Positions 9,178 through 39,521 of a stretch of 64,000 nucleotides of DNA are shown here, piece after piece. Source of the stretch: Patescibacteria group bacterium. GTDB taxonomy: Bacteria; Patescibacteriota; JABMPQ01; JAQVVF01. The notes under the pieces were generated by a model. The model was given only the letters and a program-made list of their open reading frames with translations, made no database searches and was not told the origin of the DNA. Positions within the stretch are counted from its first letter, which is position 1, and the number at the start of each line of letters is the position of its first letter. The position numbers and the translations under genes were made by a program. The stretch is taken from contig JAQVVF010000001.1 of the NCBI GenBank assembly GCA_028699085.1, positions 103,883-167,882 of the forward strand, in the 5' to 3' direction.

Positions 9178-9933
9178 ATGATTAAGAAATTAGCTTTAAG
9201 CATTATATTTCTAGGGTTATTGGAATCAATTATTTATTTCCAAAAATCAAATATTGTTATTATCATTGCTGCTATTCTCTTATTTCTACTTTCACTTATT
9301 TCTTCAGTTCGGCTAAAAGTTTTACACAAAATTGGTTTTTGGGGACAAGTAAATATTTCTATTTTGCCTCTTTCGTATATTCTAAGTGCAACAGTTTTTT
9401 TATTGTTTGTTCCAGATCTATATTATTTACAGCAAATTTATCTAGGTCTAGCTACTATCATTTTTTACGGCGCTTTAAAGCTTGTCGAAAATGTTTGCAG
9501 AGATGTTAAAAGCAGAAATGCCTTCAAGACTTGTGATTTTTTAATCACAATCTCAGCTTTCTTATTTTATGCTAGTATCTTCGGATTGTATCTTTTCTTG
9601 CTATGGCCATCTTGGATCTTCCTGATTCTCTTAGCTTTTGTTACTTTCATCCTCACTTATGAATTCTTCTGGCATAATCTGCTCTTGCAAAAACACATTG
9701 TTTATTCATTGATTTTAACTTTAATAATCTCTGAAATCAGCTGGGCATTAACACTATGGCCAACAGGTTTTATGCCTAGAGCAATGGTCATTTTTACAGT
9801 CTTTTATGCCTTTACGACTCTATCTAAACATAATTTCAATAAGACCTTGAACAAAAAGGTTGTCAGAAATATTATTATAATTAGTATTTTAATCCTATTG
9901 CTGGCCTTGCTAACAACCCAGTGGACGTTTTAG
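9178..9933 (+). CDS. polytopic membrane protein, unknown function
   Basis: Long ORF, multiple hydrophobic helices, no recognisable motif. Confidence 0.5.
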   Translation: MIKKLALSIIFLGLLESIIYFQKSNIVIIIAAILLFLLSLISSVRLKVLHKIGFWGQVNISILPLSYILSATVFLLFVPDLYYLQQIYLGLATIIFYGALKLVENVCRDVKSRNAFKTCDFLITISAFLFYASIFGLYLFLLWPSWIFLILLAFVTFILTYEFFWHNLLLQKHIVYSLILTLIISEISWALTLWPTGFMPRAMVIFTVFYAFTTLSKHNFNKTLNKKVVRNIIIISILILLLALLTTQWTF

Positions 9934-12085: not shown

Positions 12086-12156
12086 TGAATTGAATATTGA
12101 ATATTTAATATTGGCATCGAGAGTAGGATAATATTCAATATTTAATATTCAGTAAC
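12086..12156. repeat. AATATT-unit inverted repeat hairpin at 5' flank of GT4 gene (direct repeat of the 10851-10919 element)
   Basis: tgaatattgaatatttaatatt ... aatattcaatatttaatattcagt. Confidence 0.55.
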
Positions 12157-12343
12157 TTTAGTTTATCAAAAAAGCCAAAAAAGCACAAATAATCGTCAAA
12201 AAATGGCTTATTCAAGCCTAGTTGTATAAATAATGTTGACAAATATTTTATATTGTGCTAATCTTTCATGATACATTCCTCAGGTTCTGGAAGCGGGATC
12301 GGACCCTACAACTGGAGAGAAACAAGGTAAGGAGGGCAAGGAA

Positions 12344-13384
12344 ATGAAGCGCAAGATCAACTGGATGCTGATGGTGGTGGTTTTCTATTTCTTCAACATC
12401 TTCAACCCGATCTACATGTTCATGGACGATGACGAGGGCCAGATCGCCTACGCGCAGGATGGATCCGAGCAGAAGGTCTGGACGATGCTGGATGCGGATC
12501 TGCAGGGCACCGGCGTGAGCTGGAAGCCCGCGTGGACCGAACAGCTCCAGGCTGCCAAGGCGATGATGGAAGCGAACCAGTTCTCCTGTCTCGAAGTGAG
12601 TGGTGTCGAGGACATCACCGGGTTCAACGTCGGCAACACGGAACTCCGTGCGGCCGGTGGTGAAGACCCGCTTCGGGCAGTGAGGGCGAGGGCGCGTGCC
12701 AGCTTCGTCATGAACAAGCTGATGGAGGTGGGTGTGGCGGGAAGCAAGATCCGTGAAGGTACCATGACGACCCGGGCCAACGAAGGCCAGAGGGGCGCCG
12801 TGATCCGCCTGATCGAGGACTGCATCCCCAAGCCGCCGGTCCAGTGCTGGGACAGCAACGAGAACTACAAGTGTGATGGTGATGAGGACGTGAACAAGGA
12901 CTCGGAGTGCAACGTGAAGGACTGCCAGGGGAACGACGGGACGGCCAAGGTCGAGATCAAGTACGACCTCGTCGGCCAGTACGTCAAGTACCTCGGAAGC
13001 CCCGAACGTGATCCGTTCACCGGAATCCTGCTCCGTGCCAACTTCCCCATCAGCGACAAGCTGACGTTGGGGCTGGCTGCGGAGTACGGCAAGGCGAACG
13101 AGATCGGTGCTGCCGGGTTCGAGCTCGACGCTGAGTGGGATTGGTTCCGCTGGATCAAACCGCGGATCAGTCTCATCGGCCGGGCCTACAACCTGACGAC
13201 GCACCTGTACTTCAAGCGTGGAGAAGTTGGTGGCGGCGTGGGCTTCAGCGGAGAACTCGTGGAGAATGAAAGCTGGTCCATCATCTATCAGGTGGTGGGC
13301 GAGTGGAAGTACGACATCGAGTACACCCGCTGGGAGTGGGAGGCGGTCAAGTCCGCGACGGGCGCCATCGGCGTCCGGTTCTGA
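12344..13384 (+). CDS. secreted OmpA-like-domain protein with C-terminal beta-strand-rich, OMP-like tail (paralogue P1, high-GC copy)
   Basis: AAGGAGGG RBS; hydrophobic N-terminus; CLEVSGVEDITGFNVGNTELRAAGGEDPLRAVRARARASFVMNKLMEVGVAGSKIREG resembles an OmpA_C peptidoglycan-binding domain; C-terminus ...GAIGVRF. Clear paralogy with the 15083 and 16072 proteins supports this strand over the antisense 12266..13444 ORF. Confidence 0.7.
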   Translation: MKRKINWMLMVVVFYFFNIFNPIYMFMDDDEGQIAYAQDGSEQKVWTMLDADLQGTGVSWKPAWTEQLQAAKAMMEANQFSCLEVSGVEDITGFNVGNTELRAAGGEDPLRAVRARARASFVMNKLMEVGVAGSKIREGTMTTRANEGQRGAVIRLIEDCIPKPPVQCWDSNENYKCDGDEDVNKDSECNVKDCQGNDGTAKVEIKYDLVGQYVKYLGSPERDPFTGILLRANFPISDKLTLGLAAEYGKANEIGAAGFELDAEWDWFRWIKPRISLIGRAYNLTTHLYFKRGEVGGGVGFSGELVENESWSIIYQVVGEWKYDIEYTRWEWEAVKSATGAIGVRF

Positions 13385-13470
13385 CGGAGAGTCCCGGGCG
13401 TCCGGCTTCGCAAGGAGTCGGGCGCCCGGTTCCGGGTGAGTCAACGGCAGAAGAGTGAGGAGGTAGAGAG

Positions 13471-14199
13471 ATGCGGAACTTCAAGCTGTGCATCATGGTG
13501 GCGATCCTGGCGATGGTGGTCGGATGTGCACTCGAGCCCCAGCCCAGCAACGGCAACGGCGGCAACGAGGGCGAAGGAGAAGGCGAGGGCGTCGAGGGTG
13601 AAGGCGAGGGCGAGGGTGAGCACCCCTGCGTGGCCGGCGAGTGCGAGGACGGGTTCGTCTGCATGGACGGGACCTGCGTGCCGGATGGGCAGGAGGGCGA
13701 GGGCGAGACGGACGGCGGCGTGGACGGCGGTGAAGGGTGCGAGTGCGACGGCGGCTGCGAGGGCGAGGGCGGCAACGAGTGCACCGAAGGGCAGCGGCAG
13801 TGCATCGAAAACGCGTGGCAGATCTGCGAGAGCAACGGCTACTGGGGTGTCCTGAACGACTGCCTCGAGGGCCAGATCTGCAACAACGGCAGCTGCGTGC
13901 CCGAGCCCGTGACCAACCCCTACACCTGCGCGGTCTGGATCAACGAGCGGGGAGAGCTGTGCGGTGACATCAACGGCCTGTCGTCGTGGACCTTCGGGTG
14001 CATGTACGAAGGGGTCGAACCGGTCTGCGAGCTGAACACCTACAACGGTGCATGCGTGCAGATCCCGGACGATGTCGTCAACACGGCATGGCCTCGGACG
14101 GAAGATGGCGGATGGCTGACGGTCGCGGGCTGCGAAGCGCGCGATGGTCTGGTCATCACCATCGACCCGGCAGGTGGTCACTTCCTGACGCTCCCCTAG
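13471..14199 (+). CDS. cysteine-rich lipoprotein with (GE)n low-complexity linker and EGF-like Cys modules
   Basis: GAGGAGG RBS; signal peptide plus lipobox MVVGC; GNEGEGEGEGVEGEGEGEGE tract; multiple CxxGxC motifs. Confidence 0.6.
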   Translation: MRNFKLCIMVAILAMVVGCALEPQPSNGNGGNEGEGEGEGVEGEGEGEGEHPCVAGECEDGFVCMDGTCVPDGQEGEGETDGGVDGGEGCECDGGCEGEGGNECTEGQRQCIENAWQICESNGYWGVLNDCLEGQICNNGSCVPEPVTNPYTCAVWINERGELCGDINGLSSWTFGCMYEGVEPVCELNTYNGACVQIPDDVVNTAWPRTEDGGWLTVAGCEARDGLVITIDPAGGHFLTLP

Positions 14200-14484
14200 A
14201 AACTTCAGTTCCCACCCGACAAACGCAAGTGCGTCGGGTGCGGCATTCTCTCCAACAATTCCAGTTCTTTCAGCGTACGTTCCTTCAAGAGTTCACTATT
14301 CAGTGGGCTCTTTTTTTATCCAAAAAAATATTGCATTTGAAACTTGGTTTTTGCTAAACCTTAGTTTCAAAGAGTGAGTATCAAATAGCCCTAAAGACAG
14401 AACACAATTACCAAGGCTAAAATATTGACAAATTTAGGCATTATAGTATAATACAAAGTCAAAACAGCACCTTTTGTACCTTCA

Positions 14485-14568
14485 GCCCGGATGGCGAAAG
14501 GGCAGCCGCAGGGGACTTAAAATCCTCCGTCGCAAGACATGCGGGTTCGAATCCCGCTCCGGGCACCA
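14485..14568 (+). tRNA. tRNA-Leu (anticodon UAA), type II with long variable arm
   Basis: Acceptor GCCCGGA/TCCGGGC, 3-bp D-stem with GG in loop, anticodon stem GGGGA/TCCTC with loop CTTAAAA (U33, TAA, A37), 13-nt variable arm with GTC/GAC stem, T-arm GCGGG-TTCGAAT-CCCGC, encoded CCA. Confidence 0.85.
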
Positions 14569-14597
14569 AAACATATCTCACGATATGTTTTTTTATT
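14569..14597 (+). terminator. rho-independent terminator after tRNA-Leu
   Basis: aacatatc-tcac-gatatgtt plus T7. Confidence 0.65.
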
Positions 14598-14609
14598 GTC
14601 AGAATCTAC

Positions 14610-14677
14610 GGGTTCGCCCCGCCATGAAGGCGGGGCGCCCTGGCCTTGTGCCAGGGCGAATCCCGCTCCGGGCACCA
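14610..14677 (+). repeat. 68-nt GC-rich tRNA-3'-end-derived element, copy 1 (GGGTTCG, two GC hairpins, then CGAATCCCGCTCCGGGCACCA)
   Basis: Last 21 nt identical to the 3' end of tRNA-Leu at 14548-14568; internal hairpins CCCCGCC-ATGAA-GGCGGGG and CCCTGGC-CTTGT-GCCAGGG; followed by its own terminator hairpin aacagtata-tta-ctatactgtttttt. Confidence 0.7.
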
Positions 14678-14725
14678 CAAAACAGTATATTACTATACTG
14701 TTTTTTCTTTAGATAAAAATGCTAA

Positions 14726-14793
14726 GGGTTCGCCCCGCCATGAAGGCGGGGCGCCCTGGCCTTGTGCCAGGGCGAATCCCGCTCCGGGCACCA
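14726..14793 (+). repeat. 68-nt GC-rich tRNA-3'-end-derived element, copy 2 (identical to copy 1)
   Basis: Identical 68 nt; followed by terminator hairpin agcagtatct...agatactgcttttttt. Confidence 0.7.
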
Positions 14794-15082
14794 TTAGCAG
14801 TTATCTTCAAGATACTGCTTTTTTTATCGCAAAAATAAAAAATTGTTATTTCAAAAGCTAATTTTCGAATATATGAAAATCGCAAAAAGCTTAAGAACAA
14901 TTTATTTGTTCAAGATAATTTATAAATACAATTATTATTTTGACAAATAGAATAACATTTGTGCGATTTGTGGCCGAAGGCATTCGCAAGATTAGTATGA
15001 AACACATTGACAAAGCAAAAAATAATGTTAAACTATCAAGTACAGAAAATCGCGCACTTTCCATTTCCAAAACGGAGGCATC

Positions 15083-15892
15083 ATGAAGACGATAGCAAGA
15101 TTCGTTGCTTTCACGTTGTTCATTATTCCTTTACAAAGTCTTGGCAAAGAGTGGCATGTACTTGATGACCATCAGGGCAAACTTTTGAATTGGCATAAAG
15201 AAGATTATTACACTCTTGAGGATATTATGCTTACGATTGCATCTAGACAGAAATCTTGTCTTGAAATTAGTGGCGCTGAAGAAGTAATTTCACTTCCATT
15301 CAATTCTCGTGATCAGGCAATTGGAAAATCAAAGTCATTTCGGGTAGCTTTAGCTAAGGTACGATCTGAATTTGTAATGGAAAAACTTTATGAAATAGGA
15401 GTGCCAAAAGCTAGGATCAGAGAAGGCCCCATTCTTAATCAGTCTGGTTATGGTGCTTATATTAAATTGATTGAAGAATGTTATCAGGAAGAGAATAAAA
15501 CAAAGTTGCCTGGCAAAGAAAAGATAGAAGATAGTAATAATGACAGCTATGATTTTCTTGGTCAGGGATCTAGCGATCAATATTTTGGCATTCATTTACG
15601 GAAAAGAATGTTGCTAGATGATGGCTTTGTTTTGAGGATTGGCGTAGGCATTGGCAAGACTCAAGACTATATTCTGACTCTAGAAGCAAATCTTGAATAT
15701 TTAATTGATCCAAATTTTAGTCCCTTTATTGCTACCTTTGTCAGAGATTATAATTTGTTAGAAAATGAAAAGATTGGCCTTGGGATTGGATTTACAACCA
15801 TAATTAATCAAACTAAAAGCTCAAGTATTTTTCTCGAAGTTGAATTGCAAGATTCAGTTGATGTTGAGGCAAGTATCGGAATTCGTTTTTAG
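15083..15892 (+). CDS. secreted OmpA-like-domain protein with C-terminal beta-rich OMP-like tail (paralogue P2, low-GC copy)
   Basis: GGAGG RBS, signal peptide; CLEISGAEEVISLPFNSRDQAIGKSKSFRVALAKVRSEFVMEKLYEIGVPKARIREG; alternating hydrophobic strands; terminal ...ASIGIRF. Confidence 0.7.
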   Translation: MKTIARFVAFTLFIIPLQSLGKEWHVLDDHQGKLLNWHKEDYYTLEDIMLTIASRQKSCLEISGAEEVISLPFNSRDQAIGKSKSFRVALAKVRSEFVMEKLYEIGVPKARIREGPILNQSGYGAYIKLIEECYQEENKTKLPGKEKIEDSNNDSYDFLGQGSSDQYFGIHLRKRMLLDDGFVLRIGVGIGKTQDYILTLEANLEYLIDPNFSPFIATFVRDYNLLENEKIGLGIGFTTIINQTKSSSIFLEVELQDSVDVEASIGIRF

Positions 15893-16071
15893 AACGCACA
15901 TTAGAGTTGCATTTGCAGCTCTTTTTTATTGTTAGCTATTTGACAATAATTTAGAAAAATAGTATTATCAATGGACCAAGTTTTAGATTGTACTCAAAAA
16001 TTTATTGACCAAGGGGACGGGCGCAGGTGCATATTGACAGCAGAGGAAGGCCAACCAGCACAGGAGGCCAT

Positions 16072-17331
16072 ATGAAGCGCTGTAGAGGTATATTGACCGT
16101 TCTTACTCTATGCCTTTTTGCCAGAGCTTCACATGCAGAGCAAGTTCAATGTCCATTCTCCGAAGTACCCGTATTTACAGCAGGCAAGATGACATGTACG
16201 CTAGCCAGCAAGACTGGATTCGTTATTGTCTTTGCACCTGAAAATTATTTGATTTTCATCAATACTCATCAAGTCAAGGAAGTTCCATACGATCGGCAAA
16301 ATGAAAGCTACAAGATTAATCTTTTGCCTGGCAACTATCAGATCAATATCATGAATGGCAGTGATATCTTCAAAGAAGAATCTATAAAAATTGAAGTCGG
16401 AAAGGGTATTTCAATCATCTTTGCATCACCAAAACTATTGTTCAAGACACCTAACGTTACTTATGCCCAGATTCGGCCAGAGCAGGTGATACAGAAGTGG
16501 GAATTGCTCAATGCATCGCTGAAGGGTATCGATTGTGTTTGGAAAGACGAATGGAAGCCCATATTGGCAAAGGTAGCAGAGGCAGTAAAAAAGGCAGAAC
16601 CAACTTCTTGCCTTGATATTGCCGGAGTTGATGATATTCATGATTTTGTGGGCATTAGCTATCCTGAAATAAGAGCAGCTGGCAGTCAGGAAGCTTTCCA
16701 TGCAATTCGAGCGCAAGGTCGAGCCAGCTTGATTATGTATCGTCTGGAAATGGATTATAATGTTCCACCACAGAGATTACGTGAAGGCAAGATTGAGATC
16801 AAAGGCGAAAAGGGTGTTAGAGGTGTGCGGATCACTCTCGTAAAGGATTGCGCCCATTTGCAAACAAGCCCTAGAAGTCTACCAAGTCAGGCAAGTCGCG
16901 TTGCAGATTCTTCAAGGTTTTCGTCAACTAGTATCAAGAAAAAGCGTCGTTGGGAAGCAATGTATGATGCGAGCTTTATCTTTGGTGTCGGGTACCATAC
17001 ATATCTTGGTAGAAAAGTATTCCAAACTCATCAAGCAGAATTCAAGGCTGATTTTAATTCAGTCTTGGTATATGCTGGAATGAGACTTGGAACAGCAGAT
17101 TACCAAGATTTTATGCCAGGAGTGAAGCTATCTCTTGGTTACAATTTTCAATATCTTAAGCCTCGGATCGGCATTTTAATTACTGCTTATCCAGCTCAAA
17201 GTATAATTGAATATAGCTTGACAACAGGCATTAATCTTTTGTTGCCGATTGAAAATCTATTCATCGGACCTCATTACGAAGTTAGCACTTTAGGACAACA
17301 TGGTTATCTAGCACTTGGTTACGAACTTTAG
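16072..17331 (+). CDS. secreted OmpA-like-domain protein with C-terminal beta-rich tail (paralogue P3, intermediate GC); start moved to ATG 16072 with AGGAGG RBS
   Basis: Signal peptide MKRCRGILTVLTLCLFARASHA; CLDIAGVDDIHDFVGISYPEIRAAGSQEAFHAIRAQGRASLIMYRLEMDYNVPPQRLREG; C-terminal alternating beta-strand pattern. Confidence 0.65.
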   Translation: MKRCRGILTVLTLCLFARASHAEQVQCPFSEVPVFTAGKMTCTLASKTGFVIVFAPENYLIFINTHQVKEVPYDRQNESYKINLLPGNYQINIMNGSDIFKEESIKIEVGKGISIIFASPKLLFKTPNVTYAQIRPEQVIQKWELLNASLKGIDCVWKDEWKPILAKVAEAVKKAEPTSCLDIAGVDDIHDFVGISYPEIRAAGSQEAFHAIRAQGRASLIMYRLEMDYNVPPQRLREGKIEIKGEKGVRGVRITLVKDCAHLQTSPRSLPSQASRVADSSRFSSTSIKKKRRWEAMYDASFIFGVGYHTYLGRKVFQTHQAEFKADFNSVLVYAGMRLGTADYQDFMPGVKLSLGYNFQYLKPRIGILITAYPAQSIIEYSLTTGINLLLPIENLFIGPHYEVSTLGQHGYLALGYEL

Positions 17332-17390
17332 TTTGCTCACATAGTTGAGCTTTTTTTTATTCAAAAAATATGCTAAAGTTAAAATATTAG

Positions 17391-35282: not shown

Positions 35283-36377
35283 ATGAGATCGCACATTACA
35301 AAATTATTTTTGTTGTCTTCAGTTTTTATTGCAAGCTCTGTGTATGCTGAAGAGCCTGAAAAGGTTCCGTCTCATCCTGATTTTTCGATCGTTTTGCTTG
35401 CTGGCAATGGTCAGAAGGCTGATTTGCCAGATGCTGCAATTGAAATTTTGATTGCCAAGTTTGCAGGAAGCAGCTTGAATCTGAGTCTGGCTGGAAAGGA
35501 AATCTTCGGTGTAATGTCTGATGAAGAAATTAGAACTTGTTTTGCAACTGATGGTTGCGTTCGCAATGTCTGCATTACCAAGCAGATGGGTAGGATGCTT
35601 TATGGGACAATCATTCAGGAAAAAGGCAAAGCAGTCAAGTCTAAGCAGGAAGGCAAGAAGCCAAAAAAGAAGGTCAAAAGTGCTAAGCCTGCCAAGAAAT
35701 CAACTACTTTGCTTTCCATTGAGTTGACATTGTTTGACGCAATCAATAACAAGATTGATACGAGTTGGACATGCAAAAAATGTCCACAAGAAGAGCTTTA
35801 TGAAAAGACAATTCCTGAAATTGCCGATACTGCAATCAGCATTATGGCCAAAAACCCGCAGATTTGGTCCGAAAGGAAACCAAGCTTGCGTGCTGATGAA
35901 GCAGCCCTCGGCCTTCAGCCACAGGAAATTGAAGTTCTGCCTCCACCTCCAGTCGCATCTGCAGAAGAGGCAAAACAACCGGAAGTTGAAGTAAGGAAAG
36001 AACCTGTTGTCAAGGTCGAGAAAAAGATCGAAGTCAAGAAGCCTGGGCTTGACTGGCATTCTTGGACTGGAATTGCCTTGATGAGCATTGGCGCTGGTAT
36101 GGTTGGAACAGGTGCATATTTCGGCGTAGATGCCAACAATGCCCGTTCCAATTATGAAGCAACAAATGTCCAGCGACAAGCAATGGAATATATGGACCAG
36201 TCAGAATCTTCTGCTGGTAAAGCAAATATCATGTACAGTGCTGGTGGTGCTATCTTGCTAACTGGAGCAACAATTTTCTTGCTGGATTATTTTGAAATCA
36301 TTCACAAGAGCACAACTGCTCCGCAAGCATTGATCATTTCGCAACCGAGCGGACTCGTCTTGAACCTTTCTTTCTAA
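35283..36377 (+). CDS. secreted protein with Lys-rich linker and C-terminal TM anchor, unknown; elevated GC
   Basis: GGAGGGAGAG RBS; signal peptide; KKPKKKVKSAKPAKK tract; C-terminal hydrophobic segments. Confidence 0.5.
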   Translation: MRSHITKLFLLSSVFIASSVYAEEPEKVPSHPDFSIVLLAGNGQKADLPDAAIEILIAKFAGSSLNLSLAGKEIFGVMSDEEIRTCFATDGCVRNVCITKQMGRMLYGTIIQEKGKAVKSKQEGKKPKKKVKSAKPAKKSTTLLSIELTLFDAINNKIDTSWTCKKCPQEELYEKTIPEIADTAISIMAKNPQIWSERKPSLRADEAALGLQPQEIEVLPPPPVASAEEAKQPEVEVRKEPVVKVEKKIEVKKPGLDWHSWTGIALMSIGAGMVGTGAYFGVDANNARSNYEATNVQRQAMEYMDQSESSAGKANIMYSAGGAILLTGATIFLLDYFEIIHKSTTAPQALIISQPSGLVLNLSF

Positions 36378-36395
36378 ACGCTAATTAATGGCGTT
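36367..36395 (+). terminator. rho-independent terminator
   Basis: aacgctaattaatggcgttttttt. Confidence 0.6.
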
Positions 36396-36656
36396 TTTTT
36401 ATTTACATTGTTATTCAATATATTTATGCATAAATTTGATATTAACCATTTTTTTATTAAAAAACAAACTTTTTTGATAAGTAGGTCCATAAAGCTTGTT
36501 TTTTTATGCTCAAAATTGACAAAAACAACATAAATAGCTACAATAAGCCATTTTTATCTTGCCAAATTATTATTAATATGCTATATTAATTTGAACAGAA
36601 AACCCAAGGTTTCGGCTGTACTGACCGAACCTTTCATAGCAAAGAGGAGGAGAGAG

Positions 36657-39521
36657 ATGAAGCCAAGAAACATGGTTGTCTTTTTGTTTTGTTGTGTGAT
36701 TTTGAGTGGCTGTCTCAAGCCGAACGAAGATTTTTCGAAGAATCTGTGCGATGAAGATGTGCGTTGTTCTGATGGATTTACCTGTATCTGCAACATGGAA
36801 AATCATACCAAGATTTGCGTCAGTGAGTCTGATCTTCCTGAGAACGCTGTTTATGCCAGCAAGGAGACGATCTGCATGATCGAATCCGATGCCGGAGTTG
36901 ATGTCGGAACTGATGTTGAAGCTGATGGCAATGTGCCTGATGCTGAAACTGATGTCCAGACTGATGCTTCGTCTGATGCAGAACAAGATGGAGGCTCGGA
37001 TCTTTCGCCTGACAATGGAACCGATTTGGCTCCTGACTCTGGTGAAGATATCCCTTGTATTCCGTCTACTGAAATCTGCGACCTCAAGGACAACGACTGC
37101 GACGGCGACACTGATGAAGATTTCAACAATCTGAATCAGGCCTGCTCGTCTGGCTTGGGTGAGTGTGAAGCTTCTGGCGTCTACGTTTGTAGCGTCGATG
37201 GCAAGAACACTACTTGCAACGCAGTCGCAGGAATTGCTGTTGCTGAAGAATGTGATGAACTGGACAATGATTGTGACGGCGTTACTGACGAAGAGTTGGT
37301 TGGCTGTTGCGATGAAGACGATGTCCAGGAGTGTGGATCTGATGTTGGTGAATGCCAGAAGGGTCAAATGACTTGTCAGGAAGACGGCAGTTGGGGACAG
37401 TGCGAAAACGCTGTTGCTCCGATTGTTGATCTTTGCGATGACAAGGACAATGATTGCGATGGCAACACCGACGAGGATTTCATTAATCTGAATTCTGCTT
37501 GTCAGATTGGTCAGGGCGCTTGTCTTTCGCATGGCGTTTTTGCTTGTAGCGAAGACAGCCTCACGACCGAATGCAACGCTGAAATCATCCAGCCTTCCGA
37601 AGAGGTATGCGATCAGCAGGATAACAACTGCGATGGCAATACTGATGAAGATTTGGCTGGCTGTTGCATTCCCGATGATCAGGTTGTTTGTGGCTCCAAT
37701 GTTGGCGAATGCCGGCAGGGCCTCAAGACTTGTTCAGCGGAAGGCGTCTGGAGCGAATGTGTCGGCGAAGTCAAGGTTGCAGAAGAGCTTTGTGATAGCA
37801 AGGACAACAACTGCGACGGCTTCATCGATGAAAAGTTCGTTAATCTTCATGCACAGTGCCAGATCGGAATTGGCGAATGCGTATCGACAGGCACAATGAT
37901 TTGCGCAATTGATCAGCAATCGCTGTCTTGCAACGCAGAAGTCAAAGTCGGAAGCGACGAGACCTGTGACAACAAGGACAATGACTGTGATGGTAATACC
38001 GATGAAGAGCTGACGCGTGAATGCGGCTCTGATGTCGGCGAATGCCAGAAGGGCGTGCAGTCTTGTTCCGCTGGTGGCTGGCTTGTCTGCGAAGGCGAGA
38101 TTCAGTCGAGCGACGAGATCTGTGACGGCCAAGATAACAACTGCGACAACAATACTGACGAAGGTTTCAACATTGGCGATCAGTGCTTCAACGGACTTGG
38201 CGAATGCCGGACCGAAGGCGTGATTGCTTGTGTTGATGAAAATCAGAGTGCTTGCAATGCAGTTGCCGGCTCAGCAAGCGAAGAGCTTTGCGATGGCCTG
38301 GATAACGATTGCGACGATTTGATCGATGAAGAGCTGGAAGACTGTTGTGAGCCTGGCACAATTTCTGAGTGCGGTATTGATACTGGGGAATGTGTGAAGG
38401 GAACTTCCACGTGCCTGGCAGACCGCTCTTGGGACTGGTGTTTTGGAGCAACTGGACCTTCCATGGAAGAATGCGATGGCAAGGATAATGACTGCGATGG
38501 CGAAAACGACAATGATCTGATTGGCTGTTGCTCTCCGGGTGTTTCTCGCAATTGCGGTATCGATGAAGGCGAATGCCGAATCGGAACGCAGACTTGCTGG
38601 GAAAATCGGGAATGGGGCGCATGCCAGAATCAGATCTCGCCGACTGATGAGATCTGTGATGGTTTGGACAACAACTGCGATGGTTTCACTGATGAGGACT
38701 TTGACCTCACCTTTGATACCAACAACTGCGGTAGTTGTAACCACATTTGCGGAAATCAGGGGACAGCGAGTTCAATCTGCGAAGCTGGTGAATGCATTCT
38801 GCAATGCAGTCGCTTCCGCTTCGATGTGAATGCTGATCCTGCTGATGGATGTGAATGTGAAGTCACCAACTGCGGAGTGGAAATCTGCGATCAGGTTGAC
38901 AATGACTGCGATGGCGCTGTCGACGAAGACTGCCAGTCGCTGGTCATGTACCTGTCATTTGACAACCATTTCAATGATGGTTCAACGAATGCTAACAATG
39001 CTGTCAACCACGGCGCCACTTTCACTGCGGATGCAGTTTGTGGCCAGGCAGCATCGTTCGACGGAGTCGACGATTATGCTGAAGTGGATAGCGTGAGTAT
39101 GAATAGTATTGGTAATGAGTTTACGTTCTTCGCAACAGTCAAGGTGCGAAGTTTCGAGCTCAATGACAGAATTTTCAATAAATATCTAAACAAGCCAAGT
39201 ATTGGAATTGATTTTTCCGATAATGTTGGAAACTGCTGGAATTTTATGTTGTCTTCAAACAACATTGGTTGTAACAAGGCAGTAGCTGTCCAGACATGGA
39301 TTACCATTGCCGGAAAATATAGTAATGGTAGATTCATTTCTTATGTAAATGGTGAAAAAGATGTAGACGTAAATACTGCCAACATGCTAGGTACAAAAAT
39401 GTACATCGGTGCATCTAGCAATTCTGGAACAAAGAGTGATATGATTATTGATCAACTTGTTTTTTACAACAAGGCATTTTCGGAAGAAGAAATCGTACAT
39501 TATTTTAAAATCCTAAAGTAG
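36657..39521 (+). CDS. 955-aa cysteine-rich repeat lipoprotein: 11 x CD.xDN[DN]CDGxTDE (MopE/putative-metal-binding-like) repeats plus C-terminal LamG (Laminin_G_3/concanavalin-like) domain
   Basis: AAGAGGAGG RBS then ATG 36657; lipobox ILSGC; alternating repeat modules; C-terminal ...AASFDGVDDYAEVDSV...LVFYNKAFSEEEIVHYF typical of LamG_3. Moderately GC-rich (~50%). Confidence 0.75.
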   Translation: MKPRNMVVFLFCCVILSGCLKPNEDFSKNLCDEDVRCSDGFTCICNMENHTKICVSESDLPENAVYASKETICMIESDAGVDVGTDVEADGNVPDAETDVQTDASSDAEQDGGSDLSPDNGTDLAPDSGEDIPCIPSTEICDLKDNDCDGDTDEDFNNLNQACSSGLGECEASGVYVCSVDGKNTTCNAVAGIAVAEECDELDNDCDGVTDEELVGCCDEDDVQECGSDVGECQKGQMTCQEDGSWGQCENAVAPIVDLCDDKDNDCDGNTDEDFINLNSACQIGQGACLSHGVFACSEDSLTTECNAEIIQPSEEVCDQQDNNCDGNTDEDLAGCCIPDDQVVCGSNVGECRQGLKTCSAEGVWSECVGEVKVAEELCDSKDNNCDGFIDEKFVNLHAQCQIGIGECVSTGTMICAIDQQSLSCNAEVKVGSDETCDNKDNDCDGNTDEELTRECGSDVGECQKGVQSCSAGGWLVCEGEIQSSDEICDGQDNNCDNNTDEGFNIGDQCFNGLGECRTEGVIACVDENQSACNAVAGSASEELCDGLDNDCDDLIDEELEDCCEPGTISECGIDTGECVKGTSTCLADRSWDWCFGATGPSMEECDGKDNDCDGENDNDLIGCCSPGVSRNCGIDEGECRIGTQTCWENREWGACQNQISPTDEICDGLDNNCDGFTDEDFDLTFDTNNCGSCNHICGNQGTASSICEAGECILQCSRFRFDVNADPADGCECEVTNCGVEICDQVDNDCDGAVDEDCQSLVMYLSFDNHFNDGSTNANNAVNHGATFTADAVCGQAASFDGVDDYAEVDSVSMNSIGNEFTFFATVKVRSFELNDRIFNKYLNKPSIGIDFSDNVGNCWNFMLSSNNIGCNKAVAVQTWITIAGKYSNGRFISYVNGEKDVDVNTANMLGTKMYIGASSNSGTKSDMIIDQLVFYNKAFSEEEIVHYFKILK

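Follow-up and report, generated by a model that had tools for sequence, protein, structure and literature searches.

Why should a bacterium from a clade treated as monoderm carry genes for proteins that resemble outer-membrane (OM) proteins, and why should one of these genes be GC-rich within an AT-rich genome? Both questions are raised by a locus at 12.3–17.3 kb of a 64-kb stretch of DNA (the window, ~30% GC) from a Patescibacteria metagenome-assembled genome (assembly GCA_028699085.1, contig JAQVVF010000001.1). This locus contains four genes for secreted proteins, grouped into three transcription units around a tRNA-Leu(UAA) gene; three of them encode the proteins P1 (NCBI PHN19_00620), P2 and P3, and the fourth encodes a Cys-rich lipoprotein. 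Patescibacteria, or candidate phyla radiation (CPR) bacteria, are treated as a monoderm clade (bioRxiv 10.1101/2021.05.31.446380; PMC8871954). The best overall explanation, which we consider reasonably probable, is that P1, P2 and P3 are paralogous wall-anchored barrel proteins and that P1 belongs to a stably GC-rich, recombining operon. Of these findings, the lasting GC richness of this operon is the more surprising.

Paralogy and predicted folds of P1, P2 and P3

Pairwise BLASTP aligned P1 with P2 over their full length (E = 4e-26, 28% identity), and aligned both with P3 over the N-domain alone (P1–P3, E = 3e-25, 38% identity; P2–P3, E = 2e-7). All three share the motifs CLE(V/I)SG(V/A)E(D/E), R..A..R..(F/L)(V/I)M..L and (R/K)(I/L)REG. 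By their sequences, P1, P2 and P3 are shown to be paralogous, predicted secreted envelope proteins of a Patescibacteria bacterium. An initial annotation of this DNA had proposed the paralogy, and its three open reading frames (ORFs), the shared motifs, the likeness of the P1 and P2 tails and the termini (...IGVRF in P1, ...IGIRF in P2, ...LGYEL in P3) were all found as described. It had likewise placed the start of P3 at 16072; we retained this ATG rather than the GTG at 16027 of the mechanical ORF, because the orthologues begin at the equivalent Met and the signal peptide fits. Beyond its account lie a second GC-rich gene (13471–14199), co-transcribed with P1, and the tRNA-Leu gene between P1 and P2.

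P1, P2, P3 and the lipoprotein had no match in Pfam, NCBIfam or the PDB sequences, and for P1, P2 and P3 Pfam returned nothing at E ≤ 1, including the OmpA_C and OMP_b-brl families that the initial annotation had expected. An AlphaFold2 (AF2) model of P1, built from 7 sequences, had a mean predicted local distance difference test (pLDDT) score of 69.6. In P1, a hydrophobic N-terminus is followed by an OmpA_C-like domain (amino acids ~44–160; nucleotides 12473–12823), a poorly modelled Cys/Asp-rich linker (amino acids 161–205; nucleotides 12824–12958) and an eight-stranded barrel (amino acids 206–346; nucleotides 12959–13381) that ends in ...GAIGVRF. The modelled N-domain (amino acids 45–157) runs beta-alpha-beta-alpha-alpha-beta-beta, and its predicted fold is of the beta-alpha-beta-alpha-beta-beta kind that superposes on solved OmpA_C/Pal domains. 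All three proteins have (V/A)(E/D)(D/E) and an invariant Arg (Arg118), which are candidate counterparts of the Asp (G-x-x-D) and Arg (R-R-A) that bind the diaminopimelate of peptidoglycan in OmpA_C-like domains. The models show that P1, P2 and P3 share a predicted domain of the OmpA_C/Pal peptidoglycan-binding fold.

The barrel of P1 was modelled at pLDDT 74–90 as eight antiparallel amphipathic strands of 11–16 residues that close on themselves. One face of the strands is aliphatic or aromatic, with Trp, Tyr and Phe near the strand ends, and the other carries Gly, Ala and Ser (~40% of the polar face) together with charged residues. P1 is thereby shown, at the level of the model, to carry a C-terminal eight-stranded amphipathic beta-barrel of the OmpA/OmpW/NspA type, and P2 is predicted to do so by its full-length homology to P1. 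The hydrophobic and aromatic C-terminal pattern of a beta-signal, pointed out in the initial annotation, is present: hydrophobic residues stand at positions 0, -2 and -4, the terminal one being aromatic, in P1 (..A-I-G-V-R-F) and P2 (..S-I-G-I-R-F), and the ending (F/L/I)G(V/L)RF is retained in all P1 orthologues. P3 (..L-G-Y-E-L) and its orthologues (..I-G-F-D-L) end in Leu and have no terminal aromatic. At the level of fold, the interpretation of these proteins as OmpA-like and of OM type is therefore upheld by the model for P1 and by homology for P2, and is not upheld by any match to a sequence family. Hypervariable outer loops of the barrel were also considered and rejected, because variation is even along P1.

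OmpA and OprF (PF01389/PF00691) combine an eight-stranded OM barrel with an OmpA_C domain. In P1 and P2 the predicted order of the domains is the reverse, with the peptidoglycan-binding domain first; P1 further differs in its Cys/Asp-rich linker, in having no Pfam match at E ≤ 1 and in coming from a clade regarded as monoderm. Pal, MotB/MotS, YiaD and the C-domain of OmpATb have a lipid or a transmembrane helix as their anchor in place of a beta-barrel, and the similarity of the P1 family to these wall anchors lies below family thresholds.

An exhaustive HMMER search of 1.84 billion representative proteins returned 180 at E ≤ 1e-3. Three groups can be told apart: a few relatives of the Patescibacteria type; ~55 proteins of ~350 amino acids that have the N-domain and overall layout in common and are mostly Gly/Ala/Arg/Pro-rich, of the high-GC type; and many long repeat proteins, several with collagen-like repeats, that match the P1 linker motif alone. 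The best match outside the clade was P0015 (E = 2.7e-24, full length), and the Gly/Ala/Arg/Pro-rich proteins matched the N-domain alone at E ~1e-13. Comparison of profiles by hhalign joined the ~350-residue metagenomic family to the P1-family N-domain with 99.3% probability (E = 9e-21; identity ~20–33%). Its members show the same layout, namely a signal peptide, the N-domain, a linker and a beta-rich tail ending in R-x-x-(F/L), and differ from P1 in that their C-terminal halves do not align with it. The profile of this family in turn matched E. coli OmpA-C/Pal weakly (58.6%, E = 9.5e-5), with VQGq.D aligned to V.G..D and rgRA to eRRA. The P1-family profile compared directly with OmpA/Pal reached a probability of 1.7%, and PF00691 touched 2 of 51 remote relatives (best E 8.7e-4).

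Word-indexed protein searches returned clade members alone, and the ~350-residue family had no match in 185,579 GTDB species genomes. Neither the P1-family protein pattern nor the DNA pattern of the 3' untranslated region (UTR) was matched in the JGI metagenome collection, and viral contigs held no match to the P1 protein family or to the 72-nt tRNA-like element described below. P2 and P3 were not returned by searches of 5.8 billion proteins; in the representative library P2 appears solely as an N-terminally truncated call of 221 amino acids (P0009). The linker motif of P1, CWDxNxNYKCDGDEDVNKDxxCxVKDCxGxDG, occurs in up to 17 copies in metagenomic proteins of ~110–2,000 amino acids, many longer than 1,000; collagen-like repeats are present in several of them, and a beta-helix or DUF7151 domain in some. 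No Pfam model covers the motif, and it is absent from P2, P3 and the P1-like protein P0008.

The P1 operon is GC-rich at one chromosomal site across a genus-level clade

The coding sequences (CDSs) of P1, P2 and P3 have GC contents of 60.4%, 35.2% and 41.0%, and the rest of the window has 30.2%; the initial annotation had noticed this gradient and put its values slightly too high. GC at third codon positions (GC3) is 0.84 in P1, 0.86 in the lipoprotein gene, 0.27 in P2 and 0.35 in P3, and 0.19–0.25 in neighbouring genes. The elevated GC follows the P1–lipoprotein transcription unit (61.6% GC overall) from its 5' leader to its terminator and peaks over the two CDSs and the spacer between them (60–67%). 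Codon usage is inverted for C- and G-ending codons alike (TTC 99%, ATC 94%, AAG 96% and CAG 98%, against 18–20% in the background), and CTG, GCG, CCG and ACG are likewise preferred. The pattern resembles an overall preference for GC and not an optimisation matched to tRNAs.

Six Patescibacteria lineages had P1 operons of the same kind, with GC3 of 0.72–0.85 in P1 and 0.79–0.86 in the lipoprotein gene. Between these lineages, the synonymous divergence (dS) of the adjacent GT4 gene was 0.42–1.03, and that of P1 alleles, compared in pairs, 0.47–1.7. The P3 orthologues of three lineages (50–55% identity) likewise agreed at GC3 0.34–0.35, next to Wzy genes at 0.23–0.25. Every contig with a P1 or P3 homologue was AT-rich Patescibacteria DNA carrying the same GC-rich insert. 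In the contigs L001, L008 and L011 the operon is bounded by the same GT4 gene on one side and by tRNA-Leu or Wzy on the other, and shorter contigs show one flank, either GT4 upstream (L007, L012) or tRNA-Leu downstream (L002, L003). All P1 loci have retained the promoter and leader, the hairpin between the two genes, the 3' hairpin and the terminator. These results show that the P1 operon is fixed at one chromosomal site across a genus-level clade. In one lineage, an insertion-sequence-type transposase gene (rve_3 and helix-turn-helix domains) lies on the opposite strand ~190 nt upstream of P1 (L003, 3–902; L004, 3–896), in the place that GT4 occupies at the other loci.

Substitutions at synonymous third positions gave the same picture in approximate figures. 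With outgroup polarisation, changes from A or T to G or C (W>S) in P1 amounted to ~0.29 per W site and the reverse (S>W) to ~0.10 per S site, and the GT4 gene showed the opposite direction. In recently exchanged segments the counts were nearly balanced (13:10 and 14:12). The counts for P1 are far from the ~16:1 excess of S>W expected under neutral decay to a GC3 of 0.2. Together with the constant GC3, they show a P1 operon whose high GC is near stationary. The initial annotation had read the gradient as repeated acquisition from a high-GC donor followed by amelioration. This is contradicted: GC3 is constant for each paralogue (P1 in six lineages, P3 in three), and P1 substitutions favour GC or are balanced instead of decaying. 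No close high-GC donor homologue was found among the 1.84 billion representatives.

The features by which a genomic island is recognised were found in part. Atypical composition beside a tRNA or mobility gene is present (61.6% against 30.2%, with tRNA-Leu ~165 nt downstream), and no integrase was found in the 64-kb window. Patchy presence was not found, the P1 operon being there in all six lineages, nor was drift towards the composition of the recipient or a closer homologue in a donor lineage.

The operon also evolves quickly and recombines. The ratio of non-synonymous to synonymous divergence (dN/dS) was 0.23–0.39 for P1 and 0.03–0.11 for the GT4 flank, showing that the P1 operon evolves 3–10 times faster than its neighbours at non-synonymous sites. 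The nearest relative switches repeatedly along the operon, with segment identities from 31% to 96%; L002 and L011, for example, are 94–95% identical over the OmpA-like domain, 92–96% over the lipoprotein C-domain and 31–61% elsewhere. The operon is therefore a mosaic whose segments have been exchanged among lineages through homologous recombination. L002 alone presents a clear allele swap: it is 99.6% identical to the window over 14657–16370 (the tRNA-like repeat, all of P2 and the first part of P3), and its P1 differs at dS 1.03. Near-identical strains with swapped alleles were ruled out as a general pattern, since the flanks of the window and L001 differ at dS = 0.42 and the contrast between operon and flank is mostly one of dN. 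Silent copies of P1 or of the lipoprotein gene, as in a vls-like mechanism, were not found in the 64-kb window, and the palindrome AAACCGAGTTTC from intergenic DNA of relatives was not enriched there.

Two known kinds of locus are comparable. The vls locus of Borrelia, an antigenic-variation locus for a surface protein, has GC content and GC skew far above those of its AT-rich genome, keeps them across species and undergoes intense gene conversion. The P1 locus differs in having no silent cassettes in the window, in recombining between lineages and in encoding an unrelated protein family. O-antigen and capsule loci have atypical composition and exchange alleles at conserved flanks. The P1 operon resembles them in lying among genes for surface glycans (Wzz, Wzy, GT4), in its atypical composition, in its mosaic alleles and in its conserved flanks; unlike them, it deviates to high and not to low GC and consists of two protein genes, not of sugar-pathway genes.

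Layout and neighbourhood of the locus

The window encodes Ddl, a YkuD L,D-transpeptidase, Wzz, a Wzy-like protein, many GT4 proteins, RmlABCD, an ABC-2 exporter and WsaF, which shows that the locus of P1, P2 and P3 sits within a cluster for cell-wall and surface-glycan biosynthesis. Its features are listed in Table 1.

Table 1. Features of the P1, P2 and P3 locus, in positions of the window
Feature	Position	Strand	GC	Evidence and remarks
Promoter region			25.9%	
P1-operon promoter-like element (extended -10 type): TTGACA, 17 nt, TG-n-TAATCT	12239..12261	+		Kept in all six orthologous loci
5' leader with GGAGG ribosome-binding site	12262..12343	+	48.8%	Conserved (alignment); GC rise starts here
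P1, 346 aa	12344..13384	+	60.4%	ORF; OmpA_C-like domain, linker, barrel (predicted)
Intergenic spacer			67.4%	
Intercistronic GC-rich hairpin, P1/lipoprotein gene	13394..13429	+		11–13 bp stem in six loci (alignment)
Cys-rich lipoprotein, 242 aa	13471..14199	+	66.5%	ORF; orthologues downstream of P1 at every locus
P1-operon 3' UTR	14215..14320	+	47.1%	Alignment, terminator scan, GC profile; GC-rich segment ends here
Next 160 nt past the 3' UTR			30.5%	
tRNA-Leu(UAA)	14485..14568	+		ARAGORN; Rfam 51.1 bits; own consensus promoter 14425–14452
Two tandem 72-nt tRNA-3'-end-like elements	14606–14677, 14722–14793	+		Terminator-like hairpin after each
P2, 269 aa	15083..15892	+	35.2%	Own promoter 15007–15034, terminator 15903–15922 (scan)
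P3, 419 aa	16072..17331	+	41.0%	Own promoter 15940–15968, terminator 17335–17350

The signals around P1 and the lipoprotein gene show, as far as sequence can, that the two are co-transcribed as one predicted unit of 2.06 kb. A strict consensus scan made no call at the promoter-like element, whose function is suggested by its conservation and position. The 5' leader had no significant fold (z = +1.18) and no Rfam match; the Rfam scan of 12150–16100 at E ≤ 1 found the tRNA alone. A compensatory change (TC/GG against CT/AG) across loci maintains the intercistronic hairpin, which is not followed by a T run and may be an mRNA-stabilising or processing element. In the 3' UTR a hairpin (CCCGAC-N12-GTCGGG, 14215–14238) is conserved, and an intrinsic terminator at 14287–14312 is followed by a T run. 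The lipoprotein consists of a lipobox (VVGC), a Gly/Glu-rich spacer and a Cys-rich C-terminal domain, and has homologues solely within the same clade. In P2, a signal peptide is followed by the OmpA_C-like domain (nucleotides ~15146–15481) and a P1-like C-terminal beta region (~15545–15889) with the end ...ASIGIRF. P3 has a signal peptide (..ASHA/E), a predicted beta-sandwich (amino acids ~25–117; nucleotides 16144–16422), the OmpA_C-like domain (amino acids ~139–260; nucleotides 16486–16851) and a beta-rich tail (amino acids ~300–419; nucleotides 16969–17328) with the end ...LALGYEL.

The tRNA-Leu gene, found likewise in L002, L003, L008 and L011, divides the conserved P1 operon from a variable segment that contains both P2 and P3. 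P2 was found solely in the window lineage and in L002/L003, and P3 in the window, L002, L008/L009 and L010; L001 and L011 have neither. The tRNA segment is itself variable, because L008, the more distant relative, has a tRNA-Lys(UUU) directly before tRNA-Leu(UAA) (9417–9598) and no 72-nt element, and L001 has no tRNA-Leu. Each 72-nt element consists of the T-arm and 3' acceptor strand of the tRNA followed by CCA, and its T loop is interrupted by two GC-rich hairpins. It had no Rfam match, and occurs as a single copy in L002 (2424–2492) and in L011 (12394–12462), where one stem has changed in a compensatory manner from CTGGC/GCCAG to CTGCC/GGCAG. The elements could be a tRNA-derived small RNA or the remnant of an integration site.

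A second gene pair of elevated GC lies elsewhere in the window, at 35283–36377 (43%, GC3 0.40) and 36591–39521 (47–54%, GC3 0.48), with a spacer of 20% GC. The first gene encodes a secreted protein of 364 amino acids with a C-terminal transmembrane segment and a match, far below threshold, to alpha-xenorhabdolysin A. The product of the second is a probable lipoprotein of 976 amino acids, dense in CDxxDNDCDG repeats of the MopE type and ending in a Laminin_G_3 domain. At 35283–39521, as in the P1 operon, elevated GC appears limited to genes for secreted Cys-rich proteins.

Competing explanations and significance

Since CPR bacteria are regarded as monoderm, the destination of the barrel is the key question. 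The candidates are an unrecognised outer layer of the bacterium itself, the OM of a host and, should the barrel be soluble, no membrane of any kind. Under our explanation, the OmpA-like domain would bind the symbiont's own peptidoglycan non-covalently and so retain the protein there, and the barrel and the lipoprotein would be the outlying part of the envelope, which evolves fast and is exposed to interactions. The barrel would most probably contact a hydrophobic layer or a membrane other than the symbiont's cytoplasmic membrane. The family may have been acquired long ago from a high-GC diderm lineage, an origin made plausible by the Gly/Ala/Arg/Pro-richness of the majority of remote relatives. 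The GC richness of the P1 operon would then be no fading trace of a recent transfer; it would be actively maintained by recombination-linked GC-biased gene conversion, by selection on the transcript, or by both. Selection on the transcript is suggested because GC jumps at the predicted transcript start and falls at the terminator, and because the RNA hairpins are conserved. P2 and P3 would be accessory, patchy copies of host-like or intermediate composition, that of P3 being equally stable.

Several observations weigh against this explanation. The fold assignments rest on AF2 models from 7–9 sequences, because no sequence model recognises any of the domains. The N-domain alone is demonstrably shared with the high-GC family, as the C-terminal halves of the Patescibacterial and high-GC proteins remained unaligned in hhalign. 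The P3 tail was modelled at pLDDT below 50, so that AlphaFold, which the initial annotation had proposed as a check, agreed with it for the P1 barrel and not for this tail; nor is the claimed likeness of the P3 tail to those of P1 and P2 statistically significant, BLASTP covering the N-domain alone. The variability of P1 is spread evenly and is not concentrated in putative outer loops. The comparison of the window with L001 gave 35:14, a net excess of S>W, and all substitution figures are approximate because parsimony polarisation is biased at this divergence.

The proteins might instead be classical OM proteins of a bacterium with an OM of its own, imported repeatedly from a high-GC donor and now at three ages of amelioration. 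An OM-type barrel with an OmpA-like fold is indeed predicted, a beta-signal-like terminus can be seen on all three proteins, the remote relatives are mostly of the high-GC type, and P2 and P3 are patchy and lie near a tRNA gene. We nevertheless hold this to be very unlikely, given that GC3 stays constant for each paralogue across lineages whose flanks differ at dS 0.4–1.0, that P1 substitutions are GC-favouring or balanced, and that the P1 operon occupies one site in all six lineages and is not patchy. Outside the clade, moreover, the closest protein is P0015 (E = 2.7e-24), and the Gly/Ala/Arg/Pro-rich proteins share ~20–33% identity in the N-domain alone. The monoderm status of CPR also speaks against an own OM, as does, weakly because the window is a small part of the genome, that no OM biogenesis gene (Omp85, LptD, Lol) was found among the ~55 ORFs scanned in the 64-kb window. 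A soluble, wall-associated barrel that binds a ligand or lipid, of the avidin, YceI or lipocalin kind, would require no second membrane: tethered to peptidoglycan, P1 and its paralogues would be ordinary fast-evolving wall proteins of a monoderm. This is possible, if on the unlikely side; against it speak the strand length of 11–16 residues, the ~40% Gly/Ala/Ser on the polar face and the Trp, Tyr and Phe near the strand ends on the apolar face, which fit the interior and the lipid-facing surface of an OM protein, and the conserved hydrophobic-x-hydrophobic-R-F C-terminus. The abrupt two-fold jump in GC within ~100 nt at both ends could also suggest a chimeric assembly, in which a Patescibacteria contig was fused with high-GC contaminant DNA; this has a negligible probability. 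It is refuted because the same junctions, with promoter, leader and terminator, recur in at least 7 independent assemblies (Logan, JGI, NCBI, GTDB) that come from different samples and pipelines; furthermore, allelic divergence tracks the lineages, and the leader directly continues the AT-rich promoter sequence.

A more specific and rather doubtful proposal can be added to the explanation that we favour. A bacterium without an OM would make an OM-type barrel, hold it on its own wall by the OmpA-like domain, and insert or dock the barrel and the lipoprotein into or onto the OM of a diderm host. Such a protein would be an inverse OmpA, fastening the episymbiont onto its host. An arms race would drive the fast evolution and the recombination between lineages. 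By way of GC-biased gene conversion this recombination would keep GC3 at ~0.8 in a genome of GC3 0.2, or else selection on the transcript would do so. That the clade instead retains an unrecognised outer layer is a less likely variant.

Our search of the literature found nothing specific on GC-rich genes or OM barrels in Patescibacteria. The P1 operon keeps a GC3 of ~0.8 while neighbours of GC3 ~0.2 gain about one synonymous substitution per site, and as a natural example of rare clarity it lends itself to telling apart, in bacteria, the bias of mutation and that of fixation, the latter through biased gene conversion or through selection acting on mRNA. The case also shows that differences in GC between paralogous genes are not readable as a clock of amelioration. 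Importantly, a predicted OmpA-like wall anchor joined to an OM-type barrel, with a terminus in the style recognised by the barrel assembly machinery (BAM), has no obvious place in a monoderm cell. Either a protein of the P1 type indicates that an episymbiont has an attachment device directed at the membrane of its host, or it challenges the envelope model of the clade.

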